This document shows, piece after piece, positions 1,784 through 37,567 of a stretch of DNA of 54,189 bases (position 1 is its first letter; each line of letters opens with the position of its first letter). The DNA comes from Dehalococcoidia bacterium (lineage in GTDB: Bacteria; Chloroflexota; Dehalococcoidia; Dehalococcoidales; RBG-16-60-22), in NCBI GenBank assembly GCA_011192005.1, contig DUFB01000068.1, positions 1 to 54,189 of the forward strand, written 5' to 3'. The notes under the pieces are model-generated. The model was given only the letters and a program-made list of their open reading frames with translations, was not told the origin of the DNA and did not search any database. A program made the translations under genes and the position numbers.

Positions 1784-1842
1784 AACATATGGAAAGAATT
1801 ACCAACCGGCTAAACATGATTAGAGGAGGAATGAAACCAACA

Positions 1843-2919
1843 ATGAAGAAATTATTTATCCTGATTTGTATCGCGCTCATTGCATCCCTGTTTACTGGCA
1901 CTCTGGTATCCTGCGGTGAACCGGAAAAGACGACAACACCCACGACACAACCAACGACAACACAACCAACCACCACGGCACCCCCCGAGCCGGTGGTCCT
2001 CAGTTTTGCCAGTGCAGCCATGGGGAACTATCAGGATCTCGAGCTGGCTTTCGCCGAAGCATTTAACGCCCGCTGCGGCCCCGCCTACACCATCGAGTAC
2101 TTCCCGGCCGAATCGAAGCTTGCTTTCCCAGAGCTTCTAGACGGCGTGAGGACCGGTGCGGCCGATATGGCGGCGGTTACCCCCAATTTCAATTCCTTCG
2201 ACGAGCCGAAGCTGGGCGCGGTAGAGATACCCTTCCTGTTTAACAACCTGGAAGCCCACCGATACGCTGTCCCGCAACTCTATCCTTTGTATGCCGAAAT
2301 ACTGGAGAACCAGTTCAACCAGAAGCTGCTGTGCCTGCATAACTACACCGGCATGGCTCTTATCTCCAACCGGTCGGTGAAGACCCTGGCGGATTGGGAC
2401 GGACTGCTGGTACAGGCGATATCCCCCGTGATTGCGTCAACGATTGAGGCACTGGGCGGCTCCGCGGTAACCGGAGTGCCCTATACCGATTCCTATTCAA
2501 TGCTGGAGAAAGGAACCGTGGACGCGGTGATAACGGCACCAGCCGCTATGCGCGTCTTCGGACTGCCGGATGTAGCCGACTACATGACGGCAGCCTACAT
2601 GACCCCGGCCGTACATGGCTTCTCCATAAATCTGGACACCTGGAACAGCCTGCCGGCGGACGTCCAGGCTATACTACTTGAAGAAGCGCAGAAATATTCG
2701 GACATGATCGACCAGTGGGTCGCCGACGAATGGATTACCGACCACCAGGCAATCGCCGATGCCGGAGTGGATATATACTATCCGCCTCAGTCGGAGATAA
2801 ACCTCTGGAAAGCAGCCTGCCAGTCGGTTATTGACGACCTGCTAGCCCAGTACGGGGCGTTTGGCGATCAGATAATGGCAATTGCTGATGAAGCAAATGC
2901 TTTATATCCCAATGATTAG
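1843..2919 (+). CDS. dctP: TRAP transporter substrate-binding lipoprotein
   Basis: Signal peptide with lipobox LVSC, Thr/Pro linker, DctP motifs (ELLDGVRTGAADM, EIPFLF, YSMLEKGTVDA). AGGAGGA RBS precedes ATG 1843. Confidence 0.92.
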   Translation: MKKLFILICIALIASLFTGTLVSCGEPEKTTTPTTQPTTTQPTTTAPPEPVVLSFASAAMGNYQDLELAFAEAFNARCGPAYTIEYFPAESKLAFPELLDGVRTGAADMAAVTPNFNSFDEPKLGAVEIPFLFNNLEAHRYAVPQLYPLYAEILENQFNQKLLCLHNYTGMALISNRSVKTLADWDGLLVQAISPVIASTIEALGGSAVTGVPYTDSYSMLEKGTVDAVITAPAAMRVFGLPDVADYMTAAYMTPAVHGFSINLDTWNSLPADVQAILLEEAQKYSDMIDQWVADEWITDHQAIADAGVDIYYPPQSEINLWKAACQSVIDDLLAQYGAFGDQIMAIADEANALYPND

Positions 2920-2921
2920 GT

Positions 2922-2960
2922 AAAAAAAAGACGCGCCCGCGGCTGTTACACCGCGGGCGC
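2922..2960. terminator. GC-rich hairpin between dctP and dctQ
   Basis: GCGCCCGCGG-N8-CCGCGGGCGC (2933-2960) preceded by an A-run. Could be a minus-strand terminator or a transcript-stabilising stem. Confidence 0.6.
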
Positions 2961-3003
2961 AAATACGGATTAGAATAAGAATATCCTCAAGGAGTTATCA
3001 TCA

Positions 3004-3543
3004 TTGTTCATCAGGATACTCCGTAAACTGGACTATTGGATTGGCAGTCTCAGTGAACACCTGTTGCTGATATGTGGAACCATGATATTATTGATGGCGT
3101 TTCTGGCAACCTTTGGTGTCATCATGCGACATATATTTGACCCCGAACCCTATTCGTACGAGTTCAGTTACATGTTCCTTCTTTTTAGTGGAGTCCTGGC
3201 CGTAGCTGGCGTGGAGAAGCTTGACCAGCACGTACGTAACGATCTCCTTGCCTCTCGTTTCCCCAATACCATGAAGATAATTATCATCAACATCATCTCA
3301 CCACTGCTGGCGATGGCTTTCTGCACTGTACTCATCTGGAAAAGCATGGATAATGCCCTTTATGCCCTGGACATCGGCCAGACCAGCCAATCTACCTGGC
3401 GGATACCCATAGCCCCAGTAAAATTCTTCATTCCGGCTGGCTTTATCCTGCTCCAGATTATTCTCTTCAGTAAATTTGTTAAGGGTATAAATCTACTTTT
3501 AAGAGGCGGCAAGGGCCCGGAGGAAGGCACTGACACCGGATAA
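3004..3543 (+). CDS. dctQ: TRAP transporter small permease
   Basis: Four TM segments, VIMRH..SYEFS, HVRNDLL; lies between dctP and dctM. Confidence 0.9.
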   Translation: MFIRILRKLDYWIGSLSEHLLLICGTMILLMAFLATFGVIMRHIFDPEPYSYEFSYMFLLFSGVLAVAGVEKLDQHVRNDLLASRFPNTMKIIIINIISPLLAMAFCTVLIWKSMDNALYALDIGQTSQSTWRIPIAPVKFFIPAGFILLQIILFSKFVKGINLLLRGGKGPEEGTDTG

Positions 3544-3567
3544 ATGACGTAAAGAAATTAGGTAACA

Positions 3568-4869
3568 ATGGATCCAACTCTCGCAGCCATAGTATGTGTT
3601 GTAGGTATGCTCTTCTTAATGATGATGGGCACACCGGTTATATATGCTCTGGGTTTTACCGCTTTCGTCGTGGCTCTGTTAGCCTTCGGTCCCTACAGTC
3701 TGGAAAAAATCGGCTGGACTACCTTCAATACCCTCTATAATATTAACTGGACGCCGCTCCCGATATTTGTACTCATGGCATGCCTGATTGCCGAAACGAG
3801 AATCGGCGAGGATATTTATAACGCTGCCCGTAAATGGCTTTCACGTATCCCCGGCGGCCTTATCGTAACCAGCATCTGGGGTGAAGCCGCCATGGCCGCG
3901 GCCATCGGTACCAGCACCGCCACCATCCTGGCGGTGGGCAAGGTAGCCGAGCCGGAGTTTGAACGCTACGGTTACGATAAGGGTTTAGCCATGGGCGGTT
4001 TGTGCTGCGGCGGTGTCCTGGGGCCCCTGATTCCGCCCAGCGCTGGTATGATTATCTACGGCGTCCTCTCGGAGACATCCATCGGACACCTTTTCATGGC
4101 CGGGATGGTGCCGGGTATACTGCTGGCACTGATGCTGGGGGGAGTTGCTGTTTTCATGTGCTGGCGGAATCCCAAGCTGGGTCCTTCGGTAGGCGGCGTC
4201 AGTTGGGGAGAACGAATCTCCTCCCTGAAAAAGGTCTGGCCGATATTCGTGGTCATGCTGTCGATACTCGGTTCAATCTACTTCGGGATAGCCTCGCCTA
4301 CCGAAGCCGCTGGAGTAGGCTGTGTGGTGGTGCTGATTATCGGCGTCGTCGTTTTCCGCCTGCGATGGACAGGACTGCGTCGGGCTTTGCTGGAAGCTGC
4401 CAAGATTAACGGCATGATTCTCTTCATGATGATAGGTGCCTGGTTATTCTCGTATGTTATCGGCAGCTCCGGAGTGGTCAGGACCGTCACCGGATTCGTC
4501 ACCGAATCAAGCCTGTCGCCCTGGCTGATCATTATCGCCATTAACGTCATGCTGCTGATTCTGGGATGCTTTATAGACGCCATCACCATCATGCTGCTGA
4601 CAGTACCCATATTCGTCCCTGTCATCGATGCATTGGGTTTCAACCCCGTCTGGTTCGGTGTTCTTTACGTGGTGAACATGCAGATAGGACTGATTACTCC
4701 GCCGATGGGACTTGAGCTGTTTATGATGAGGACGGCCTTCAACATCCCGGTGGATAAACTCCTGCGCGGAGTCCTGCCATTCCTGATTGTTCTCTTTATC
4801 TTCCTGGCTATCCTCATAGCTTTTCCGGAGATAAGCCTCTGGCTACCCGAGATGATGAGAACCAGATAA
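3568..4869 (+). CDS. dctM: TRAP transporter large permease
   Basis: Multi-TM with LGPLIPPS, LFMAGMVPG, SPTEAAG and IGLITPPMG. Confidence 0.95.
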   Translation: MDPTLAAIVCVVGMLFLMMMGTPVIYALGFTAFVVALLAFGPYSLEKIGWTTFNTLYNINWTPLPIFVLMACLIAETRIGEDIYNAARKWLSRIPGGLIVTSIWGEAAMAAAIGTSTATILAVGKVAEPEFERYGYDKGLAMGGLCCGGVLGPLIPPSAGMIIYGVLSETSIGHLFMAGMVPGILLALMLGGVAVFMCWRNPKLGPSVGGVSWGERISSLKKVWPIFVVMLSILGSIYFGIASPTEAAGVGCVVVLIIGVVVFRLRWTGLRRALLEAAKINGMILFMMIGAWLFSYVIGSSGVVRTVTGFVTESSLSPWLIIIAINVMLLILGCFIDAITIMLLTVPIFVPVIDALGFNPVWFGVLYVVNMQIGLITPPMGLELFMMRTAFNIPVDKLLRGVLPFLIVLFIFLAILIAFPEISLWLPEMMRTR

Positions 4870-4940: not shown

Positions 4941-5696
4941 ATGGGACCAGTGTCGCGCGATTATTCAGCGTTCGATAGACTGAAACTGGAAAGGGAGCCG
5001 GTGGGAGTAAAATTCCTGCCGACCCGACCGGAAGGAATCAACCGAATAAAGACAAAGCTGGCTTTCTGCGAGATGTTCTACGAGGCACAGCAGAGCGAGC
5101 CTTTTTACGTTCAGAAGGAAGACTTTTTATGTGTGGAGCCGCTGCTTCTGGGCATGGAAGACCCGGAACCTGTCCTCGTCAGCGGTTTTGCGGGGGGTTC
5201 AGCCGGACTGTTCAAAGAGACCAGAGCCAACCGTAAAGTATACCAGTACATCCCCAAAATGCTGAAAGGGTCGGTTAATGTTGTTGCTTTCTCGACCATC
5301 GACCGGATGGACTTTGACCCGGATGTGCTCGTGATTACGGCTAACGTAAATCAGGCACGGACACTCCTCAGGGCAGAAGGTTACACTACCGGCGATAAAT
5401 GGTCGAGCAACGGCACGCCCATCATGGCATGCGCGTGGATGTATATCTACCCGGTCATAAGCGGCCGGACAAACTTCACGATTACGGGGCTCAGTCTGGG
5501 CATGGAGGCGATTAACTCCCCGATACCGGAGGGACTATTCATCATATCAATACCCTGGAATGTTCTCCCGACAGTCATGGAAAACCTGCGGGATGATGAT
5601 ATCTACAAGAGCTGGCGAAGCTCCGGTAGAGAGGCGCACTTCAAGCGCTTTGAAAAACGGCTAAACCAGTTGCGCCAGGAAATGTCAGATTTATAA
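4941..5696 (+). CDS. DUF169 domain protein
   Basis: PVGVKF, FCEM, C...LG, FDPDVLVI, ACAW motifs; AAGGAGG RBS. Confidence 0.82.
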   Translation: MGPVSRDYSAFDRLKLEREPVGVKFLPTRPEGINRIKTKLAFCEMFYEAQQSEPFYVQKEDFLCVEPLLLGMEDPEPVLVSGFAGGSAGLFKETRANRKVYQYIPKMLKGSVNVVAFSTIDRMDFDPDVLVITANVNQARTLLRAEGYTTGDKWSSNGTPIMACAWMYIYPVISGRTNFTITGLSLGMEAINSPIPEGLFIISIPWNVLPTVMENLRDDDIYKSWRSSGREAHFKRFEKRLNQLRQEMSDL

Positions 5697-5737: not shown

Positions 5738-6490
5738 ATGAATCAGACCAGATGGGATTATTCCGTATTCGATAAATTCAACTTTGAAAGAAAGCCGGTA
5801 GGCATCAAGTTCCTGCTAAACAGACCGGAAGGACTGGAACAGACGGATAAAATAATGCCTATCTGCCGGTTGTTTACAGAAGCGCAGACGGGACAGCCCT
5901 TTTATGCCACCAAAGATAACTTTTCCTGCGTTGACAGACTGATACTGGGAATGATCGACCCCGAGGCTTATATGGTTAGCGGGCAAATCGGCGCCAAGGA
6001 AAAGATATATCAGGAAGCACGGGCCAACAGCAGGATATATCACCATATCTATAAAATACCCAGAGATACCGTCAGGTATGTGGCTTTCTCCTCTCAGGAT
6101 AAACTTACTTTTGAACCAGACCTGCTGATTATTACCGCCAAGCCGTCCGATGCCGAAATCATATTCCGGGCTCTAAGCTACTCCATCGGTAAGCCGTTAA
6201 CATCAAAATTTACCCCGGTACTCATGTGTGCCTGGGTTTTTGGTTATCCGTATATCACCGGAGAACTGAACTACACCGTTACCGGAATCGGCTACGGCAT
6301 AAGAATGCAGAGAGTACTGCCCGAGGGCCTTTTCCTGATATCCGTACCGTATGATTTAATCCCGATGCTGATAGATAATTTAAAGGAAATGGAATGGGTT
6401 CTCCCGATGACCACGCTCAGCGAGGAAGACAGAAAAGTATTTTCTGCCAGGATAATGGAGGAAATACAGGAAGAATACAAAAACGGTTAA
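5738..6490 (+). CDS. DUF169 domain protein (tandem paralog)
   Basis: PVGIKF, ICRL, FSCV..LG, FEPDLLII, MCAW; AAGGAGG RBS. Confidence 0.82.
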   Translation: MNQTRWDYSVFDKFNFERKPVGIKFLLNRPEGLEQTDKIMPICRLFTEAQTGQPFYATKDNFSCVDRLILGMIDPEAYMVSGQIGAKEKIYQEARANSRIYHHIYKIPRDTVRYVAFSSQDKLTFEPDLLIITAKPSDAEIIFRALSYSIGKPLTSKFTPVLMCAWVFGYPYITGELNYTVTGIGYGIRMQRVLPEGLFLISVPYDLIPMLIDNLKEMEWVLPMTTLSEEDRKVFSARIMEEIQEEYKNG

Positions 6491-6523
6491 ACCACAGGAT
6501 AACAGGCCGGGTAAGGAGGAAAA

Positions 6524-7348
6524 ATGATCGGGAAAATCGTCATTGACGAGGTGAAGAAGCAAAGAATAATTGATAAAGCCGGTCATCTCGGGGCCGGAGA
6601 GGGAGTAAATTACGGAGCCTGAGCGCCGTCCTCATTCGCTTCAATATGCGAAGCCTTCAGGTCTGAAGGCATAGAGTTATTTACACCGGAAGTACAGGTA
6701 ATAATACTCCAGGGGTTGATGGGACTACATTCCGGTATAGCCTATACGGGAGTAGGCACTTGCGGCGGTGTTACCGGCAGCGCCTTTGCCGTCGCTTATG
6801 TCGTCGGCGTTACCGCCGAAGATATAGCCAAAAATCATCGCACTTTCATCGCTCCGTGCATCCCTGTCGTGGAGGATATCGTGGACAGGTTTGAGGAGAC
6901 GTACGGCGCCATAGATTGTCTTAGATTACGTTATAACCGTATCCAGCGTGCCTATGACTTTCTTGACCCCGACGCCGCGGTATACGAAGCGCTTTTTGCT
7001 ACCTCTCAAAGGCAAAAATGTGGAGTACTGGCGGACTGCTACGAGTGCGGGCGCGACCAGGGGATGCCCTCGGTCGGTGCGCGCTGGGGCGCGGAATCTA
7101 TTTGCGACTTATTAAATATGGAACCTGAAGAGCGGAAGAAGCTCCCACCGCATCTGGAAGGCTATGACATGGAAACACTCATGCCGAAGGTCCAGAAGGT
7201 CGCCGAACTGATGAAAGAACTGGGACTCGGGCGCCCTGACGAGAAGATATCCTGGCGGGAGTACCGGACACTCAAGCTGAAAGGTAAGAAGGGAGTTGAA
7301 GAAAGCAGGCCTTGCGGGGTCGATGCACCAAAGAAGGAGAAATATTAG
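6524..7348 (+). CDS. C_GCAxxG_C_C family redox protein, probable selenoprotein (UGA 6620-6622 read as Sec33)
   Basis: AAGGAGG RBS before ATG 6524. Reads MIGKIVIDE...NYGA-UGA-APSSFASICEAF..., in frame with ORF 6716-7348 (GTCGGVTG, GAIDC). The UGA falls at the family's first Cys. Confidence 0.8.
6653..6670 (+). promoter_or_regulatory. Candidate bacterial SECIS hairpin
   Basis: GCCTTCA-GGTC-TGAAGGC, a 7-bp stem with a G-starting loop 37 nt after the UGA. Contains CAGGTCTG, as in the E. coli fdhF SECIS apex. Confidence 0.55.
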
Positions 7349-7670: not shown

Positions 7671-9407
7671 GTGAAAAAGGACTGGCGTGAACTCATAAGT
7701 CAACCCAAGTACGGCATTAAAGTAGAAAAAGATATATTCGTAACCGTGCGTGACGGCGTCCGCCTGGCGGTAAACGTCTACCGTCCGGATGCCAGGGGCA
7801 AGTTCCCGGCTCTATTCGCCATGGGGGGTTACGGTAAAGAATTGCAGGAGGTATTGATTCCGCCGCAGCCTCTTTATAAAAGCGCTGTCTGGGACGGCAA
7901 CATCGAGGCCGGAGATACACCCAACATAGTGCCCCGGGGTTACGTGCATGTCATCGCGGATGCCAGGGGCACCGGCGAATCCGAGGGCGAATATTACGGG
8001 ATGGCGACGCAGCAGGAAGGGAAAGACGGTGCCGACATCGTGGAGTGGATAGCGCAACAGCCCTGGTGCGACGGTAACGTGGGCATGATAGGATACTCGT
8101 ATTACGGAAACATGCAATTAAAAGTAGCTATCCAACAGCCACCCCATCTTAAATCTATATGTGTTTCCCACCTTTTTATTGACTTTTACCGCGATGGCGC
8201 CTATTCCGGAGGTGTCCTGAGATTATTCCTATATGGATTGTGGGACGGCCGCCACGGCACAAGCGGTTGCGCACCTAAAAACGCCGTATCGGTAATGATG
8301 AAAAATCTGCCTGAAGAAGAATTCGAGCGCCGACGTAACGAACTCCTGAACGACCCCGATATCCAGCACTACCCCAATATTTACCACCTGTTGAAATATC
8401 CCCAGAAAAATCCCCCCTTCTTCGATATAGTAATGAATCCGTTCGACGGACCTTTTTACCAAGATAAGTCTGTTTACCCTTACTTCGATAAGATTAAAGT
8501 CCCTACATTCGTAGTCGGAAAAATCGGAGGGGCTAAAGGTTACTGGGAAGCTTACGACAATATAGATACCGTTAAGAAACTCTTCGTCAAGCCCACCGGC
8601 CCCGAAGAGCGACCCTGGAGAGAGGATATAGAGACCATTCTACGGTGGCATGACCACTGGCTGAAGGGTAACGATACCGGTATCATGGATGAACCTCCTA
8701 TCAAGATGTGGGTCTCCGGAGTCAATAAGTACCGATACGAAAATAAATGGCCTTTAGAGGGGATTGAATATACCGATGTTTACCTCCGCCGCTGGGAAAA
8801 TCTTTCTTTCGAGCCCGAGCTTTATCAGCCGGAACCCGACTGCTTCCTGCAGCAACCGCTTCATCTTTCCAATAAGAGAGACTCGGTGAAGTACGTCAGT
8901 CCGACTCTACCGGCGGATCTGGAGGTAATAGGGCAGGGAGCCATAAACCTGTTCGCCTCCATTGACCAGGATGACACCAACTGGATAATCAAGCTGTCCG
9001 ACGTAATGCCGACCGGCGCCGAGCGACCGGTAGCCAGAGGAGGGCTGAAGGCATCGCATAAAGCCCTGGATAAAGCCAGGTCCAAGCCCTATGACCCGTA
9101 CCACCCGCATACCAGCGCCGAACCGATTAAACCGGGCGAGATAACTGAATACAATATCGGTCTGGGGCACATAGTAAACGTATTTAGAGCAGGACATAGA
9201 ATTAAGCTGGAGATAGAAAGTCTGGAATCGCCGCGAGACCCCGAGATGCAGATTCACTATCATCCGTCGCTGAACAGCTCCAAGACCACTCTCCATAAGA
9301 TTTACCGGAACAAGGAATACCGGTCGCATCTGATACTGCCGGTCCTTTCCGGTAAGGAGAATGTACTGGAAGTAATGAGCGACGATAATTTCCAGAGCAG
9401 TCTATAA
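7671..9407 (+). CDS. CocE/NonD family serine hydrolase (peptidase S15-like)
   Basis: VRDGVRLAVNVYRP, DARGTGESEG, QPWCDGNVGMIG-YSYYG nucleophile elbow, C-terminal PepX_C-like domain. Confidence 0.92.
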   Translation: MKKDWRELISQPKYGIKVEKDIFVTVRDGVRLAVNVYRPDARGKFPALFAMGGYGKELQEVLIPPQPLYKSAVWDGNIEAGDTPNIVPRGYVHVIADARGTGESEGEYYGMATQQEGKDGADIVEWIAQQPWCDGNVGMIGYSYYGNMQLKVAIQQPPHLKSICVSHLFIDFYRDGAYSGGVLRLFLYGLWDGRHGTSGCAPKNAVSVMMKNLPEEEFERRRNELLNDPDIQHYPNIYHLLKYPQKNPPFFDIVMNPFDGPFYQDKSVYPYFDKIKVPTFVVGKIGGAKGYWEAYDNIDTVKKLFVKPTGPEERPWREDIETILRWHDHWLKGNDTGIMDEPPIKMWVSGVNKYRYENKWPLEGIEYTDVYLRRWENLSFEPELYQPEPDCFLQQPLHLSNKRDSVKYVSPTLPADLEVIGQGAINLFASIDQDDTNWIIKLSDVMPTGAERPVARGGLKASHKALDKARSKPYDPYHPHTSAEPIKPGEITEYNIGLGHIVNVFRAGHRIKLEIESLESPRDPEMQIHYHPSLNSSKTTLHKIYRNKEYRSHLILPVLSGKENVLEVMSDDNFQSSL

Positions 9408-9452: not shown

Positions 9453-10211
9453 TTAATGTAAATATTCGCCTGCGTTGACAGCCAGCGTCTGGCCGGTAAT
9501 CATCCTGGCTTCGTCCGAGGCGAGAAAGACCACGGCGGCGGCGATGTCCTCCGGCTGGACGGCTTTCTTGATGAGCTGCCGGCCCGTCTGGTCGCCGCCT
9601 CCTCCGGAGTGCAGAGCCTGCATTGCCTCGGTATTGACCACGCCGGGCGCCACGGCATTTACGTTGATATTGAACTCGCCGAGAGCGGTCGCCAGGCCGC
9701 GGGTCATCGTCATCACACCACCCTTGGAAGTACTGTAGTGCAGGAAGTGAGTCGAGCCGTTGAAGCCAGCCGTCGAGGCGATATTCACAATGCTGCCCTG
9801 GCCCTGTTTCTTCATATAGGACATCACAGCCTTGCAGCAGTTAAAGGTGCCCTTGATATTTACCTCAAGATACCTGTCCCAGTCCTTGGCCACCATCTCT
9901 TCCACCGGTTTAATAAAATCGGGGATTTCAATACCACCGATAGCCCCGGCATTATTGACCAGAACATCTATCCTTCCGAATCGCTCGATGGTTTTTTGAG
10001 CCATCACGGCAACATCGTTTTCACTGGTAATATCGGTTTCTAGAGCAAGGACTTCTCCGTCGTTGGCCTCTATCTCTCTGGCAACCGGCTCGCATTCCAG
10101 GATATCGCAGACGGTCAATTTAGCCCCTTCCTGAGCGCAGCGCAAGGCAATAGCCCTGCCCAGACCGCGGGCACTCCCCGTAACGATACAAACCTTGTTT
10201 TCCAGTCTCAT
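9453..10211 (-). CDS. SDR family NAD(P)-dependent oxidoreductase
   Basis: TGSARGLG, NNAG, YSTSK catalytic motif, NAVAPG. Confidence 0.95.
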   Translation of the reverse strand: MRLENKVCIVTGSARGLGRAIALRCAQEGAKLTVCDILECEPVAREIEANDGEVLALETDITSENDVAVMAQKTIERFGRIDVLVNNAGAIGGIEIPDFIKPVEEMVAKDWDRYLEVNIKGTFNCCKAVMSYMKKQGQGSIVNIASTAGFNGSTHFLHYSTSKGGVMTMTRGLATALGEFNINVNAVAPGVVNTEAMQALHSGGGGDQTGRQLIKKAVQPEDIAAAVVFLASDEARMITGQTLAVNAGEYLH

Positions 10212-10237
10212 TTTTCCACCCCCCTCTCCGAGATTTG

Positions 10238-12871
10238 TTACACTACCCAGGCATTAAAGCGTAGCCCGGAAGCAGGGTCGTATTCTCTTTCAAAGGCGGC
10301 AGGATATCGCTCTCGCCATTCTTCCATCTGAGCCATAGATACTTTCTCGACTTCGACCAGATAGCCGCTGGTAGCCATGCCGGCAGAATTTTTGGACGTT
10401 ATACCCTCCGGCGAGATGAGGTTGATGGCACCGCCTCTGTCCAGCTCTCCCGGAATAATAAAGTCGACCCTGGCCCCGTGGTCGATATAAGCTACACCGG
10501 GCATCAGGCGCTCGGTGACGTAAGCACCTGCAAGGACAGTACCTCTCTCGTTGTATATCTTTACTATATCGCCATTCCTGATACCCCGCTCAGCGGCGGT
10601 CTTGGGATTGAGCCATAGGGGCTCGTACATGTAACCGTCCCAACCCCTGACCTTGCCCGTCGGGGTCTCCCGCGTCCATGAGATATCGTCGCACTGGGCA
10701 TGCACCCGCCACCGGCCGTGGTTGGACATCAACAGAAGCGGGTACTTTTTGGCCCTTTCGCTGGAAAGCCTCTCATCATGCGTAGGGCCTTTTTCAACCC
10801 ATTTTGGCACCGGGGGCCTTTCTTCATCATCCGGGAAGTGCTCGGCTAATCTCGCCGAGTATAACTCAAGCTTGCCGGAAGGCGTAGGCAGGGGATACTT
10901 GTCAGGGTCTTTATAAAACTGGCTCATGCCGGGCGGGTCTTTCTCCCAATCAGGAGCCGTGGGATAGACGTAATACTGCTTTTCGTTGAAGTCTTCCCAG
11001 CTGATAACCTCTTCCAATCCAAGACCCTCATAGACATATTTAATTAAGTCCTCCACAGTACGCCCAGCGGTAATTTCCTCGTATTTGCCCAGCTTTTTAG
11101 CTACTTCGAGCATTATCTCGTAATCGCTCTTGGACTCGCCAATGGGTTTAATAGCTTGTTTTTGCAACAATACGTTCTCGAACTGCACGCCCTGCATTGT
11201 GTTGGGCATGATATCGTCGACCTCGAAATGGGTATTGGCCGGCAGGACGATATCGGCGGTAAGGCAATCGTTCTCCATCCAAGGGTGCTGGACGATAATA
11301 CATTCTATCTCGGGGCTCCTGAGCTCTTCAATCACCTTATTACCATAATTCCAGCAGGTAGGCCGGCAGGGCGTATCGGACCATATCATGTGTATTTCAG
11401 AACCGCCTTCTTCCTTGGGAGCGGGGAAATTGTACTGCACGAACTGGTCTTCTACCTGTGCGGCTGCCGAACTCGTACCGTACCAAGAGACGGGGGGATT
11501 TTGCAGGATAGAGTGCATGAGGACCTTGGGGAAATGCTGTTTCTGGTAGGCCAGGGCATGGGCGGCGAAGGAGCGCAGTATCGGGTCGGCGTACACCTCC
11601 TCGGTGCTCTTCCCGCCCAGGGATAAAGTAGCGTTTTTCGGCTTTACTGCCCGAGGCATCGAGGGGTTTACCCAGTACGGATTGCACTGGTGAACGCCCG
11701 GTGCGCCGAGTCCCTGCATCGCCAGTAGAATACATTCCAGGCGGGCAGGTTCGGTAGAGTACGGGCCCCTGATATAAGAGCCTCCGTAACCATGCGCAAT
11801 CGTCGTTACGTTGGCAGCAAACTCACGCGCCAGCGCTTTAATCGTCCATACCGGCACGCCGCACTTGGGCGACGCCCACTCGGGCGTCTTGGGCACGCCG
11901 TCTTCTTTGCCCGTAACATAGGCCTCTACCTCATCGAAGCCAACGGTGTGGGTAGCGATATATTCCTTATCGTAGGTGCCTTCTCTTATCCAGGTGTAAA
12001 TTATCGCCAGCTGCAGGGCGGCATCGGTGTTGGGCAATACCGGGACCCACTTATCGGCATGGACAGCGGCGCCGTAGTTAAGCTCGGGGCAGATATACAC
12101 CTGTTTGATACCAGCATCCCGCCAGAAATAGCTCAGGCGACTGGGAAACTGCCCACAGAATCCCCACGCCGACGTCTCCGGGTCGAAGCCCCAGCACAGT
12201 ATCAGCTCGCTGTTTTCGGAAACATCCTTAATGATGTTGGCTGCCGGGGCCATCATGCCCTGGTAGCCGGTCCCCCAGACATGCATCGAGCCCCAGTACC
12301 AGCCTTCCCAGCTGTCCGCATTCCTTATCTGCTGGGTAAAGCCCCCCATTTTACCCATGAGAGTCGACGGGGAGCCATGAGATGGATGCACTGTCTTGGA
12401 CTCGCCATGGCCTTCGGTCTGCGTACAGATCGCCAGCGGCCCGTATTTCGCCTGAATCCTCTTTATCTCGTGGGCGATGATATCAGTAGCCTCGTCCCAG
12501 GAGATTCTCTTATACTTGCTGATACCCCTGTTTTGAGTATTTCTCTCACCGTTGGGGTCCCAGTCAACCCTTTTCAGGGGATATTTTATCCGGTTGGGCG
12601 AATAAGCCCTCTTTTTATAGGCAATATTGAAAGGGGGAGGCAACGACTTCATATTCGGTTCCAGGTTGGCGCCGTTCCGCTCGATTTTCCAGGGATTCAG
12701 TTCTTCTTTTTGGTATTTCCAGTCATAGTGAAGCGGTCTAACCCGGACAATTCTCCCGTTCTTAACATCGCACACACCCTCGGCACCACCGCCCATGATA
12801 CCCATGAGACTCAGTGTCCTGACGAAAGTCTCCTCTTTACCTTCGGCGATAATCCTGTTTTCATCCGACAT
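10238..12871 (-). CDS. DMSO-reductase-family molybdoenzyme, pyrogallol transhydroxylase large-subunit-like
   Basis: YPLKRVDWDPNGERN, RISWDEA, DSWEGWYWG (putative Ser ligand), C-terminal MGD-binding domain. No N-terminal Fe-S Cys motif and no Tat signal. Confidence 0.87.
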   Translation of the reverse strand: MSDENRIIAEGKEETFVRTLSLMGIMGGGAEGVCDVKNGRIVRVRPLHYDWKYQKEELNPWKIERNGANLEPNMKSLPPPFNIAYKKRAYSPNRIKYPLKRVDWDPNGERNTQNRGISKYKRISWDEATDIIAHEIKRIQAKYGPLAICTQTEGHGESKTVHPSHGSPSTLMGKMGGFTQQIRNADSWEGWYWGSMHVWGTGYQGMMAPAANIIKDVSENSELILCWGFDPETSAWGFCGQFPSRLSYFWRDAGIKQVYICPELNYGAAVHADKWVPVLPNTDAALQLAIIYTWIREGTYDKEYIATHTVGFDEVEAYVTGKEDGVPKTPEWASPKCGVPVWTIKALAREFAANVTTIAHGYGGSYIRGPYSTEPARLECILLAMQGLGAPGVHQCNPYWVNPSMPRAVKPKNATLSLGGKSTEEVYADPILRSFAAHALAYQKQHFPKVLMHSILQNPPVSWYGTSSAAAQVEDQFVQYNFPAPKEEGGSEIHMIWSDTPCRPTCWNYGNKVIEELRSPEIECIIVQHPWMENDCLTADIVLPANTHFEVDDIMPNTMQGVQFENVLLQKQAIKPIGESKSDYEIMLEVAKKLGKYEEITAGRTVEDLIKYVYEGLGLEEVISWEDFNEKQYYVYPTAPDWEKDPPGMSQFYKDPDKYPLPTPSGKLELYSARLAEHFPDDEERPPVPKWVEKGPTHDERLSSERAKKYPLLLMSNHGRWRVHAQCDDISWTRETPTGKVRGWDGYMYEPLWLNPKTAAERGIRNGDIVKIYNERGTVLAGAYVTERLMPGVAYIDHGARVDFIIPGELDRGGAINLISPEGITSKNSAGMATSGYLVEVEKVSMAQMEEWRERYPAAFEREYDPASGLRFNAWVV

Positions 12872-13000
12872 GACAAAATACTCCTGTAAGATTTATCTTA
12901 TACTTAATTCCAGTGATATTATTAATTCATACCGGTTTATCATATGAAATATGCCAATTTGGTGACCATAATCTAACATATTCAACAAGTTTTTAGAAAT

Positions 13001-14236
13001 CTATCCCATCGGGCGGGAAATGGTTTCTTCCGTTCTATAATGTGTTTCTTTTACCATAAGGAGCAGGGGCAATGCCACGACCGACAGGATTGCCCAGAAG
13101 AAAATGGGCAGGTCATCGTTGAAGTGGGTAAGGCTGTTGCCAATCGGGGGCGAGATGGTAGCCCCCAGCATCCCCAGGGTAGCTGTCAGACCGATTGCCG
13201 TCCCGCCGTAAGTTCCGCTAACACCCTTGATTTCGAAAATCATGGTATTAGCCAGAGCCGCAACACCAGACCGTAATACCCCGCCAGCAATAAGGACTAT
13301 CCAGACTCCGGTAGGATTGACGAGAGGGACCAGTCCCAGGCTCAATGCCAGGACGAGGACAGCGAATGTAATTACTATCTTTCGGGAGCCTATTCTGTCC
13401 GAAATCAATACCATGGGAATTACGCCGAGAATCCCGATGCCACTGAAAGCAGTCATGGCGCCATCCGCCAGCTCCGGTTCCCAGCCGATGTTACGGAGAT
13501 ATAGCGGCAGGTACCCTCCGAAGCCCAGATTGGCACCCCAGTAGGTCAGTAGAAGAGCGCCTATAAGCCACACATCTTTGATACGCATGACCCTAGCCAA
13601 CGTACTGCGGAACGCCTCTCTGGTGATTGGTGCAGTCTCGGTGTCCTGCCCTTCGGGTTCGCGTCCCGTGAACCACCAGAGCAACCCCAGCAGCACCGGA
13701 GGCGCACCGAAGAAAAACAGCACGTTCCGCCAGCTACCCAGTAACGGTGAAAGAAGCGTGGCACTGGACAGGGTCGCCAGCACGGCGCCGATAGACCAGG
13801 CCACATTCAACATACCGTTAGCCAGGCCCAGACGCTTATCGGCAAACCACACCGCGGTAACCTTGGGTACGATACTCGGCGTAACCGCCGCCATCAGGCC
13901 GAAAAGGAACATGAAAGCCGCCATGCTGAGGAAATCCACCGAAAATCCCCTTAGCGCTGCGAAGATACCTGCCAGTATACAGACTATCGTTAACATACGC
14001 TTTACCCCGAACCTGTCGGCAAGAAGACCGCCCGGTAGACCCAGGAATACTCCGGCCAGGGGGTCCATGCCCCAGATAGTACCGATAGCCACCATGCTCA
14101 AGCCCAGTTCGGCGGAGATTTCCGGGAAAAGCACGGGCATGCAGAGTCGGGCTGAGCCGGCGATGGAGCCGTATGTACCCATAGCCAGGAGAAGGATATA
14201 CCATCGGTAATAAGAACCGCTTCGCATGGATTTCAT
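13001..14236 (-). CDS. MFS transporter
   Basis: About 12 TM segments; motif A GLLADRFGVKR and ISDRIGSRK. Confidence 0.92.
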   Translation of the reverse strand: MKSMRSGSYYRWYILLLAMGTYGSIAGSARLCMPVLFPEISAELGLSMVAIGTIWGMDPLAGVFLGLPGGLLADRFGVKRMLTIVCILAGIFAALRGFSVDFLSMAAFMFLFGLMAAVTPSIVPKVTAVWFADKRLGLANGMLNVAWSIGAVLATLSSATLLSPLLGSWRNVLFFFGAPPVLLGLLWWFTGREPEGQDTETAPITREAFRSTLARVMRIKDVWLIGALLLTYWGANLGFGGYLPLYLRNIGWEPELADGAMTAFSGIGILGVIPMVLISDRIGSRKIVITFAVLVLALSLGLVPLVNPTGVWIVLIAGGVLRSGVAALANTMIFEIKGVSGTYGGTAIGLTATLGMLGATISPPIGNSLTHFNDDLPIFFWAILSVVALPLLLMVKETHYRTEETISRPMG

Positions 14237-36340: not shown

Positions 36341-37567
36341 ATGGTCCGCATGGAAGCTTTAAGTCCGGAAGAGCGAGAGTTGATGATAAGGCTCCCCACC
36401 CCCTCTTTTGACACCAACCCCTGGGTCACCGCTCCGCCTCTGGAAAAAGTCCGCCTGGCTATCATCACCACGGCCGGACTGCACACCCGGAACGACCGCC
36501 CTTTCCAGATTGACCCCAACGATTTCTACCGCGTTATACCGGGTGACGTTCAGGCTAACGACCTGGTGATGTCCCACCTGGCTGCCAGCTTCGACCGCAG
36601 CGGCTACCAGCGCGACTGGAACGTGGTCTTCCCCCTCGACCGGCTGCGGGAGATGGTATCTGAAGGTATTATCAGCAGCTTGGCATCTTTTCATTACTCG
36701 GTCAGCGCCGTGCACACCAAGGAAGAGTTCGATGCTCCGACGCGGGAAATCGCCCGTCTCCTGAAAAAGGATAACGTCAACGCCGCCCTGCTCTTACCCG
36801 TCTGACCGGGCTGTACGTCCGCCGTTGGCGTACTGGCTCATTATATCGAGGATGAGGGTGTAGCCACCACCGGTATCAGTCTTATCCGGCCCCACACGGA
36901 GGTTATCAAGCCGCCGCGGGCTCTCTGGGTGTCTTTCCAGCTCGGTCATCCCCTGGGCGCCCCGAACGACCCTGATTTTCAGAGAAAGGTATTGATAGCC
37001 ACTTTCGAGTTGTTCAAGGCACCCTCCGGACCGGTGCTGGAGGATTTCCCCGAAGATGAACCAGAGAACGATGAAATAACCATGCTGGCATGCCCGGTGA
37101 ACTTCGCCCGTAATATAGATAGCAGTAGAGAGACCGACGCGAAGAAGGTAGCCTTCCGGAGAGAAATGACCGCGATGCGTCCGTGGTACGATATGGCCGT
37201 CACCAAAAGAAAACGCACCACCGTGGGCGCCAGCTGTATCGACATCGAAAAGCTGGGCGACTTTATCTACGCCTTCCTGGAGGGTAACGAACCGGAGAAC
37301 CCCCGCAATGACGTACCCCTTTCGAATACGCTGAAACTGGCCGTCGAAGACCTGAAGTCATACTACATCGAAGGGATTACGGCACAGCCGGGCCAGGAAG
37401 ATGCCTCAAGCAAGTTGCTCCAGAACTGGTTCTGGGACGAGACGGTTGGCGGCAAAATCCTTCTGGATTTAAAGAAAGTATGCGAGGCAAGTCCGGATAA
37501 AATGATGAGCTTGATCGGCAGTCATTTTATCGTCCCCGGGGATGTCGCTCGACGGCAGACCGCCTGA
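36341..37567 (+). CDS. GrdB/PrdB-like reductase selenoprotein B family protein with C-terminal extension (UGA 36803-36805 read as Sec155)
   Basis: RLAIITTAGLH, DWNVVFPLDRLRE, LLLPV-UGA-PGC (UxxC). Continues in frame through IEDEGVATT..KPPRALWVSFQLGHPLG into ORF 36929-37567; 408 aa in total. Confidence 0.85.
36808..36839 (+). promoter_or_regulatory. Candidate SECIS hairpin
   Basis: GTACGTC-CGCCGTT-GGCGTAC stem with a GGGC/GCTC lower stem, just 3' of the UGA. Confidence 0.45.

Follow-up and report, generated by a model that had tools for sequence, protein, structure and literature searches.

Does the TGA triplet at positions 6620-6622 of contig DUFB01000068.1 (Dehalococcoidia bacterium, assembly GCA_011192005.1; the 54,189-nt stretch analysed here, hereafter the window) close a short reading frame, or is it read as selenocysteine (Sec) inside a longer gene? 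Judging from sequence comparison, we put the probability at about 0.9 that 6524-7348 is a real selenoprotein gene whose UGA codon 33 specifies Sec. The idea that this UGA encodes Sec in a 274-residue selenoprotein had been put forward in an initial annotation of the sequence, and is strongly supported by the cysteine column of the homologues, by selection on the gene and by the Sec machinery of the genome. In the mechanism that we propose, translation would initiate at ATG 6524, and the UGA would be decoded by SelB together with Sec-tRNA(Sec), SelB being recruited by an RNA signal that lies in the coding sequence directly 3' of the UGA. The signal would consist of a 36-nt pair of abutting hairpins (6635-6670), the second of which presents a GGUC loop of the fdhF type; Sec would stand in for the first of four cysteines conserved in the protein family, and the product would be a 274-residue cytoplasmic selenoprotein.

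An in-frame UGA in the column of a conserved cysteine

Read from ATG 6524 to a TAG, with TGA translated as U, the frame covers 6524-7348 (+) and comprises 274 codons including Sec33. Its lone internal stop is TGA 6620-6622 (codon 33, context NYGA-U-APSS), after which it continues into the open reading frame (ORF) at 6716; the read-through translation thus confirms the single UGA and the open frame that had been described earlier. The strong ribosome-binding site (RBS) claimed for the same start is present as well: a Shine-Dalgarno-like AAGGAGG, read in the sequence at 6513-6519 (+), lies 4 nt upstream of the ATG and is kept, by DNA alignment, in three of the four relatives whose DNA extends that far (the second copy in genome G002 reads AAGGAGAG). 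An in-frame TAA at 6512-6514 makes a start upstream of ATG 6524 impossible.

A protein search with the read-through product gave 137 matches, of which the best 120 were listed and 35 of those 120 were aligned with the query; what follows on database proteins holds among the matches listed. The full-length homologues (271-291 amino acids (aa), 52-77% identical by BLASTP, 99-100% query coverage) bear Cys in the column of U33 in 26 of the 26 proteins aligned, with neither Trp nor any other residue, as do all 40 Cys-type loci described below; the nearest Cys forms (P0002-P0007) are 73-78% identical to the query. All 15 matches with less than 90% coverage lack the N-terminus, and every match above 78% identity (two NCBI-sourced clusters included) is N-terminally shortened, which bears out the forecast that gene callers would truncate this gene. 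In consequence, the first conserved Cys/Sec and about 60 residues are missing from these database entries.

At the DNA level, orthologues with one in-frame TGA occur in the related genomes G010, G002 (in two places) and G003, whereas a copy in G008 (62% identical) has no in-frame TGA. A scan of species-representative genomes found 56 loci, 50 of which span codon 33 (10 with TGA, 40 with TGC or TGT). A scan of metagenomes, whose patterns were specific to the query and whose yield was accordingly Sec forms plus one distant match, gave 26 loci, and TGA is carried by 22 of the 22 that span the codon. Counting the window and a partial locus, 34 loci in all keep the TGA, and they amount to 28 distinct 90-nt sequences; several metagenome loci equal genome loci over that 90-nt stretch and may be the same DNA. 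In a quick tree, which omits the partial loci L092 and L093 and in which L088 is only 28% filled, all TGA-keeping relatives fall within one Dehalococcoidia clade (SH-aLRT 99).

As to the family, the read-through product matches Pfam PF09719 (C_GCAxxG_C_C) over residues 65-145 (30.4 bits, cut-off 27), and residue 33 falls at position 3 of the profile TIGR01909, which NCBI names 'C-GCAxxG-C-C family (seleno)protein'. A profile-profile alignment (hhalign) of the long subfamily to which the product belongs with eleven short members of the family (94.6% probability, E 6.9e-8) places U33 on the family's first conserved Cys. Both comparisons agree with the initial annotation, which had pointed to a first Cys of the family upstream of the GxCGAxxG motif. 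Sec33/Cys, C80 and C132 are all aligned and conserved: Cys80 (6761-6763, +), in the TCGGVTG of the CGAxxG-type motif GTCGGVTG, is invariant in 36 of 36 aligned sequences, and Cys132 (6917-6919, +), the family's third conserved Cys, is invariant in the alignment and matches a conserved Cys of the short forms in the profile-profile comparison. That comparison stops before the family's fourth Cys; Cys166 (7019-7021, +, in KCG) is invariant in the long subfamily and may correspond to that fourth Cys. At codon 113 (6860-6862) we further observed Cys, in the motif APCIP, in all Sec forms and in the nearest Cys forms, while Ser takes its place (APSIP or AASIP) in the majority of Cys forms that are more distant; this Cys may be a partner residue for Sec33.

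Two abutting hairpins under constraint in the selenocysteine forms

The RNA that follows the UGA was folded with RNAalifold on 12 Sec-form sequences, and the consensus consists of two abutting hairpins. Hairpin 1 (6635-6652, +) begins 12 nt after the UGA and has the consensus UUCGCAU-CNAU-AUGCGAA; in the window it is made of 5 consecutive pairs (UUCGC...GCGAA) and one isolated pair past a U-U mismatch, as against 7 pairs in most relatives. Hairpin 2 (6653-6670, +; GCCUUCA-GGUC-UGAAGGC) has a 7-bp stem that begins 30 nt after the UGA and a GGUC loop at 6660-6663, the distance from the A of the UGA to the first G of the loop being 37 nt. The latter hairpin is the one reported in the initial annotation, which overlooked the second conserved hairpin lying between it and the UGA.

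Both hairpins are under constraint at the RNA level, and this constraint is specific to the Sec forms. In every one of the 28 distinct Sec sequences hairpin 1 retains 6-7 of its 7 pairs, as opposed to 3-7 (mostly 4-5) in the 40 Cys loci, and the GGUC loop is present in all 28 Sec sequences versus 12 of the 40 Cys loci; the minimum free energy (MFE) of the 36-nt two-hairpin element ranges from -16.3 to -11.7 kcal/mol in the former and from -11.0 to -1.7 kcal/mol in the latter. Synonymous variation, the weightiest part of the evidence, tells the same. Where residues are conserved, codons differ pairwise by 0.46 on average among 11 Sec-form genes, with only 7.7% of codons invariant; of all 6-codon windows in the gene, the eight with the least variation fall within codons 36-49 (minimum 0.073, at codons 41-47), the codons of hairpin 1 (38-43) being inside these lowest windows. 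For 35 Cys forms these codons are unremarkable (0.45-0.57, rank 38-235 of 265). Changes within the stems are mostly compatible with wobble pairing (U-A to U-G, G-C to G-U). We consider the structure to be above chance, because 28 distinct sequences retain the TGA along with both hairpins and synonymous change is lowest precisely there.

A close known counterpart is the selenocysteine insertion sequence (SECIS) of Escherichia coli fdhF. In the K-12 record the fdhF UGA is followed by 18 nt and then GGUC; the apex there, CAGGUCUG, recurs unchanged at 6658-6665 of the window, in accordance with the apex quoted in the initial annotation and with its remark that the loop here is farther from the UGA. 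Thus the two signals share an in-frame hairpin after the UGA, the 8-nt apex and the 4-nt GGUC loop closed by C-A/U-G. They differ in that the loop stands 37 nt after the UGA here and 18 nt in fdhF, in that the 7-bp stem is perfect and without the bulged U that the fdhF SECIS stem has, and in that the spacer here holds another hairpin. The bacterial SECIS (bSECIS) model, as set out in the retrieved passages of PMC13188914, prescribes a loop of 3-9 nt with G among its first two positions, an upper stem of 4-16 bp, a spacing of 16-37 nt and an MFE of at most -7.5 kcal/mol. Compared with these published values, hairpin 2 (4-nt loop starting GG, 7 bp, -9.1 kcal/mol, 37 nt) agrees in every respect, its spacing being exactly the upper bound of the model. 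An Rfam scan of 6560-6760 with E up to 10 gave a noise match alone and no SECIS family. The literature passages searched held no description of a two-hairpin signal of this kind or of the long subfamily.

Which of the two hairpins would be bound by SelB? We infer that it is hairpin 2: hairpin 1, once folded, would take away 18 nt and leave hairpin 2 about 12 nt from the UGA. An unlikely but by no means negligible alternative is that hairpin 1 is itself the functional SelB-binding SECIS, hairpin 2 being an accessory or stabilising structure, or perhaps one that makes the ribosome pause. The position of hairpin 1 speaks for such a role, as it begins 12 nt after the UGA while comparable hairpins begin at about 11 nt in selD and in short-form Sec genes of the family, and as its loop starts about 19 nt after the UGA, inside the range of 14-21 nt that the genome's further selenoprotein genes show (the four are selD, MsrA, one of the UGSC family and one resembling PrdB, all treated below). 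Its codons are moreover under synonymous constraint, and it is far more stable in Sec than in Cys forms. However, the hairpin 1 loop (CNAU; UUCAAUAU in the window) varies at a third codon position and has no G among its two initial bases, which the bSECIS model in those same passages demands, and 3 of 12 sequences, the window among them, have its upper pairs disrupted; hairpin 2, on the other hand, is invariant and carries the fdhF-type GGUC loop. Concerning the short forms, in two of three Sec genes the UGA is followed by just one hairpin (8 bp, GGCU loop, starting 11 nt after the UGA), and the third (G085, L140) has a different sequence downstream of its UGA.

Weighing selenocysteine against other readings of the UGA

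Several observations weigh against the reading of codon 33 as Sec, or against the signal that we propose for it. The product scores 24.4 bits with TIGR01909, short of the curated cut-off of 47.4. As the Sec forms make up one clade, the conservation of TGA and hairpins does not amount to many independent events, and the contrasts between Sec and Cys forms are partly phylogenetic. Compensatory double changes were found by RNAalifold in 0 of 19 pairs, and folding of the single sequence downstream of the UGA is not better than that of shuffled sequences (z -0.64 and -1.28); such folding is likewise not significant for the selD, MsrA, UGSC and PrdB-like signals of this genome, and therefore does not serve as a test here. 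Cys forms also conserve the peptide AFRSEG, and 2 of the 40 Cys loci have the full 7-bp hairpin 2, so that part of the pairing potential stems from the protein sequence. Furthermore, at 37 nt the loop is farther from the UGA than in the four other selenoprotein genes (14-21 nt) and in E. coli fdhF (18 nt).

The strongest remaining competitor, though a very improbable one, is read-through that inserts Cys, Trp or Gly at the UGA, whether through near-cognate decoding or under a reassigned code; in its favour, the inserted residue cannot be deduced from sequence alone. Against it stands first the genetic code: TGA closes 346 of the 1364 long open frames of the genome and is hence an ordinary stop under the standard code. 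Secondly, neither Trp nor Gly was found at this column in any homologue examined. Thirdly, a SECIS-type hairpin is present and the Sec machinery, to whose presence the initial annotation had tied its proposal, is complete: the source genome (108 contigs, 79.6% complete) holds selA (564 bits), selB (C75:20992-22830; 353 bits), selD (401 bits) and tRNA-Sec (73 bits), all above curated cut-offs.

Slightly less room still is left for the TGA being a true stop, in which case a leader peptide of 32 residues would be followed by a separately translated ORF of 210 aa. ORF calling with table 11 yields indeed only this ORF (6716-7348, from a TTG), and the database entries of the closest relatives listed are of the same shortened type. 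Nevertheless, the 31 codons from the TGA to 6716 are in frame, conserved and alignable with full-length Cys homologues in which they are contiguous, the TGA aligns exactly with a Cys, and the shortened product would lose the first conserved Cys of the family together with its first helices. Purifying selection points the same way: 22 sequences (duplicates, partial loci and one indel locus removed) give a pN/pS of 0.169 over codons 1-32 and of 0.148 over codons 34-233, and this likeness on both sides of the UGA indicates that the upstream segment is translated in the same frame.

Sequencing support comes from four public DNA runs, used as DNA contigs, which span 6620-6622 with no alternative letter reported. 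In the bin 6642-6673 contig depth is 171-210 in all four runs, as against about 12 in most other bins, and the sole variant listed within either hairpin (6667 A>G, in all 4 runs) keeps its pair as G-U. As a separate observation, one contig in each of runs X2 and X3 skips 25 bases within 6494-6520, before the RBS, which probably reflects strain variation in the spacer that separates this gene from the DUF169 gene upstream. That a Cys codon (TGC or TGT) was mutated or misread to TGA, in a pseudogene or by assembly error, would take a single change from TGC in a metagenome-assembled genome (MAG) of limited completeness, and is practically negligible in view of the 28 distinct TGA-bearing sequences from many independent assemblies (34 loci), the agreement of the four runs, the purifying selection on either side of the TGA and the dedicated RNA structure that co-occurs with it.

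The long subfamily, its surroundings and its possible role

By its sequence the protein represents a long subfamily (~272 aa) that diverges from the rest of the C-GCAxxG-C-C family. With the short-form Sec members it shares the domain family and the presence of Sec in place of a conserved Cys: in three short-form members from other Dehalococcoidia Sec likewise sits at the first Cys, in N-U-A(Q/E). It is set apart from them by length (274 aa versus ~130-150 aa), by a conserved C-terminal half that has no Pfam match and by the motif around the first Cys (GA-U-AP here, N-U-AQ in the short forms). The window's own genome also contains a Cys-type member (L142, G000:C84:6315-6599 (+)) that is extended at its N-terminus and has KN-C-AQ as its first-Cys motif, and which scores 35.2 bits with TIGR01909, under the cut-off. 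Elsewhere, one MAG holds on separate contigs a Sec form and a Cys form (L042 and L054, with 92% and 61% identity to the query, respectively), from which it follows that the Sec and Cys types are paralogues able to coexist; in the window's own incomplete genome the Sec form alone was found with this query.

The AlphaFold model of the product is all-helical (pLDDT 79, pTM 0.76), and no signal peptide is visible in the product. A Foldseek search of the model against the PDB gave no match at E up to 0.001, and the long-form profile found nothing among PDB sequences at E up to 1. In a wide structural search the top match was split-Soret cytochrome c (1h21) with Z 11.3 (rmsd 4.1 over 150 residues; next Z 5.3), although the search tool warns that, for an all-helical model, a Z of 11 may reflect a common arrangement. 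Searches with short forms reach 1h21 weakly (E 6 with a single protein; E 0.78 with a profile, over the GG..CGAxxGA motif). The likeness to split-Soret cytochrome c is one of fold only, with no significant sequence similarity, and the 274-residue product has no CXXCH haem motif. The title of the 1h21 entry mentions a novel iron centre, which we take to be a Cys-bound iron-sulfur cluster; the literature passages found on 'split-Soret' contain no description of it. The fold resemblance to this cytochrome makes it plausible, though unproven, that Sec and the cysteines together build a centre that binds iron or is redox-active.

With regard to genomic context, the gene is preceded on the same strand by an IclR regulator (935-1783, +; Pfam), a TRAP transporter DctP/Q/M (1789-4869, +; Pfam) and, directly upstream, two tandem DUF169 genes (4941-5696 and 5738-6490, +; PF02596, 106.5 and 97.2 bits), and is followed by a CocE/NonD family (S15) hydrolase (7671-9407, +; PF02129/PF08530; NCBIfam TIGR00976, 280.6 bits). 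The IclR and TRAP genes are a probable operon context. The gene order DctQ-DctM-DUF169-DUF169-Sec gene is kept in L043 and L048, and a DUF169 gene adjoins 4 of 10 Sec loci and 6 Cys loci, the other loci having unrelated neighbours. The protein may cooperate with its DUF169, TRAP transporter and CocE/NonD hydrolase neighbours in taking up and degrading an organic acid. On the opposite strand lies a neighbouring cluster (9453-14236, -) with a short-chain dehydrogenase, a molybdopterin oxidoreductase (877 aa, first domain pyrogallol-hydroxytransferase-like) and an MFS transporter; together with the TRAP, IclR and CocE genes it suggests an island for the breakdown of aromatic or organic acids.

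The other selenoprotein genes came from a genome-wide scan with strict hairpin and coding filters, the second pass of which missed the target gene itself, so that these four are not the complete selenoproteome. The first is selD (L009, G000:C69:20521-21564 (-)), which itself has an in-frame TGA (SG-U-ACK) followed after 11 nt by the hairpin AGGUC-CGGGU-GACCU. Within the window, a PrdB/GrdB-like gene (36341-37564, +; TGA 36803-36805; 408-residue read-through with U155 in LPV-U-PGC) has a hairpin close behind its UGA and, on both sides of that codon, matches models of 'selenoprotein B' (TIGR04483, residues 32-223, 99.6 bits, below cut-off; PF07355, 37.6 bits), and is a probable second selenoprotein gene of the window. 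An MsrA gene (L101, G000:C50:41-787 (+); TIGR00401, 133 bits) has its in-frame TGA at the catalytic G-U-FWG, the loop of the hairpin ACUCCC-GGUUC-GGGAGU beginning 19 nt after it, and a UGSC-family gene of 591 residues (L125, G000:C88:7531-9303 (-); PF24696, 91 bits) has a TGA in the GD-U-GSC of its N-terminal domain and a GC-rich hairpin of 7 bp with the loop 21 nt after the UGA. Out of 31 read-through candidates compared with Pfam, 26 had no family. DUF4956 and MMPL candidates were rejected: their matches lie only downstream of the TGA, and they are for this reason probably ordinary genes with a later start.

How much of this is new? The initial annotation had spoken of a hidden selenoprotein, which holds inasmuch as the gene is miscalled; it is less hidden and less new than this suggests, since the use of Sec in the family is already stated in the NCBIfam name and in two reviews. 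In the retrieved passages of these, Sec-containing C-GCAxxG-C-C proteins are listed as a selenoprotein family (PMC9312934) and as 'form 1' and 'form 2' (the 2026 review PMC13188914). Likewise, the passages retrieved from PMC13326102 report Dehalococcoidia MAGs with 46-49 selenoprotein genes and note the lineage as rich in selenoproteins. Sec use in the family is thus already catalogued, and the gene adds one member to it. Less ordinary are the long subfamily, its N-terminally shortened database entries, the two-hairpin SECIS geometry and the resemblance to the split-Soret fold. Two of these could be new: a SECIS geometry that reaches the model's limit, and the structural link with a protein that has an iron centre.

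Taken as a whole, the corrected gene model adds a selenoprotein to the Dehalococcoidia, and Sec marks the first conserved Cys as a chemically critical residue of the C-GCAxxG-C-C family. The coexisting Sec and Cys paralogues, together with the recurrent DUF169 neighbours, provide a tractable handle on the function of the family, and the G-loop placed at the 37-nt limit behind another hairpin is a natural test of the maximum distance between a bacterial SECIS and its UGA. More speculatively, and with doubt on our part, the signal would be a compound SECIS of a type that the bSECIS model does not cover: the conserved 18-nt spacer hairpin 12 nt after the UGA would stack on the GGUC hairpin and bring a SelB site that is 30 nt distant in sequence to the usual distance from the ribosome. 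In addition, Sec may serve as a ligand of a split-Soret-type iron centre and not as a simple analogue of a redox thiol. If this were true, the gene would encode a selenoprotein with selenium-ligated iron.

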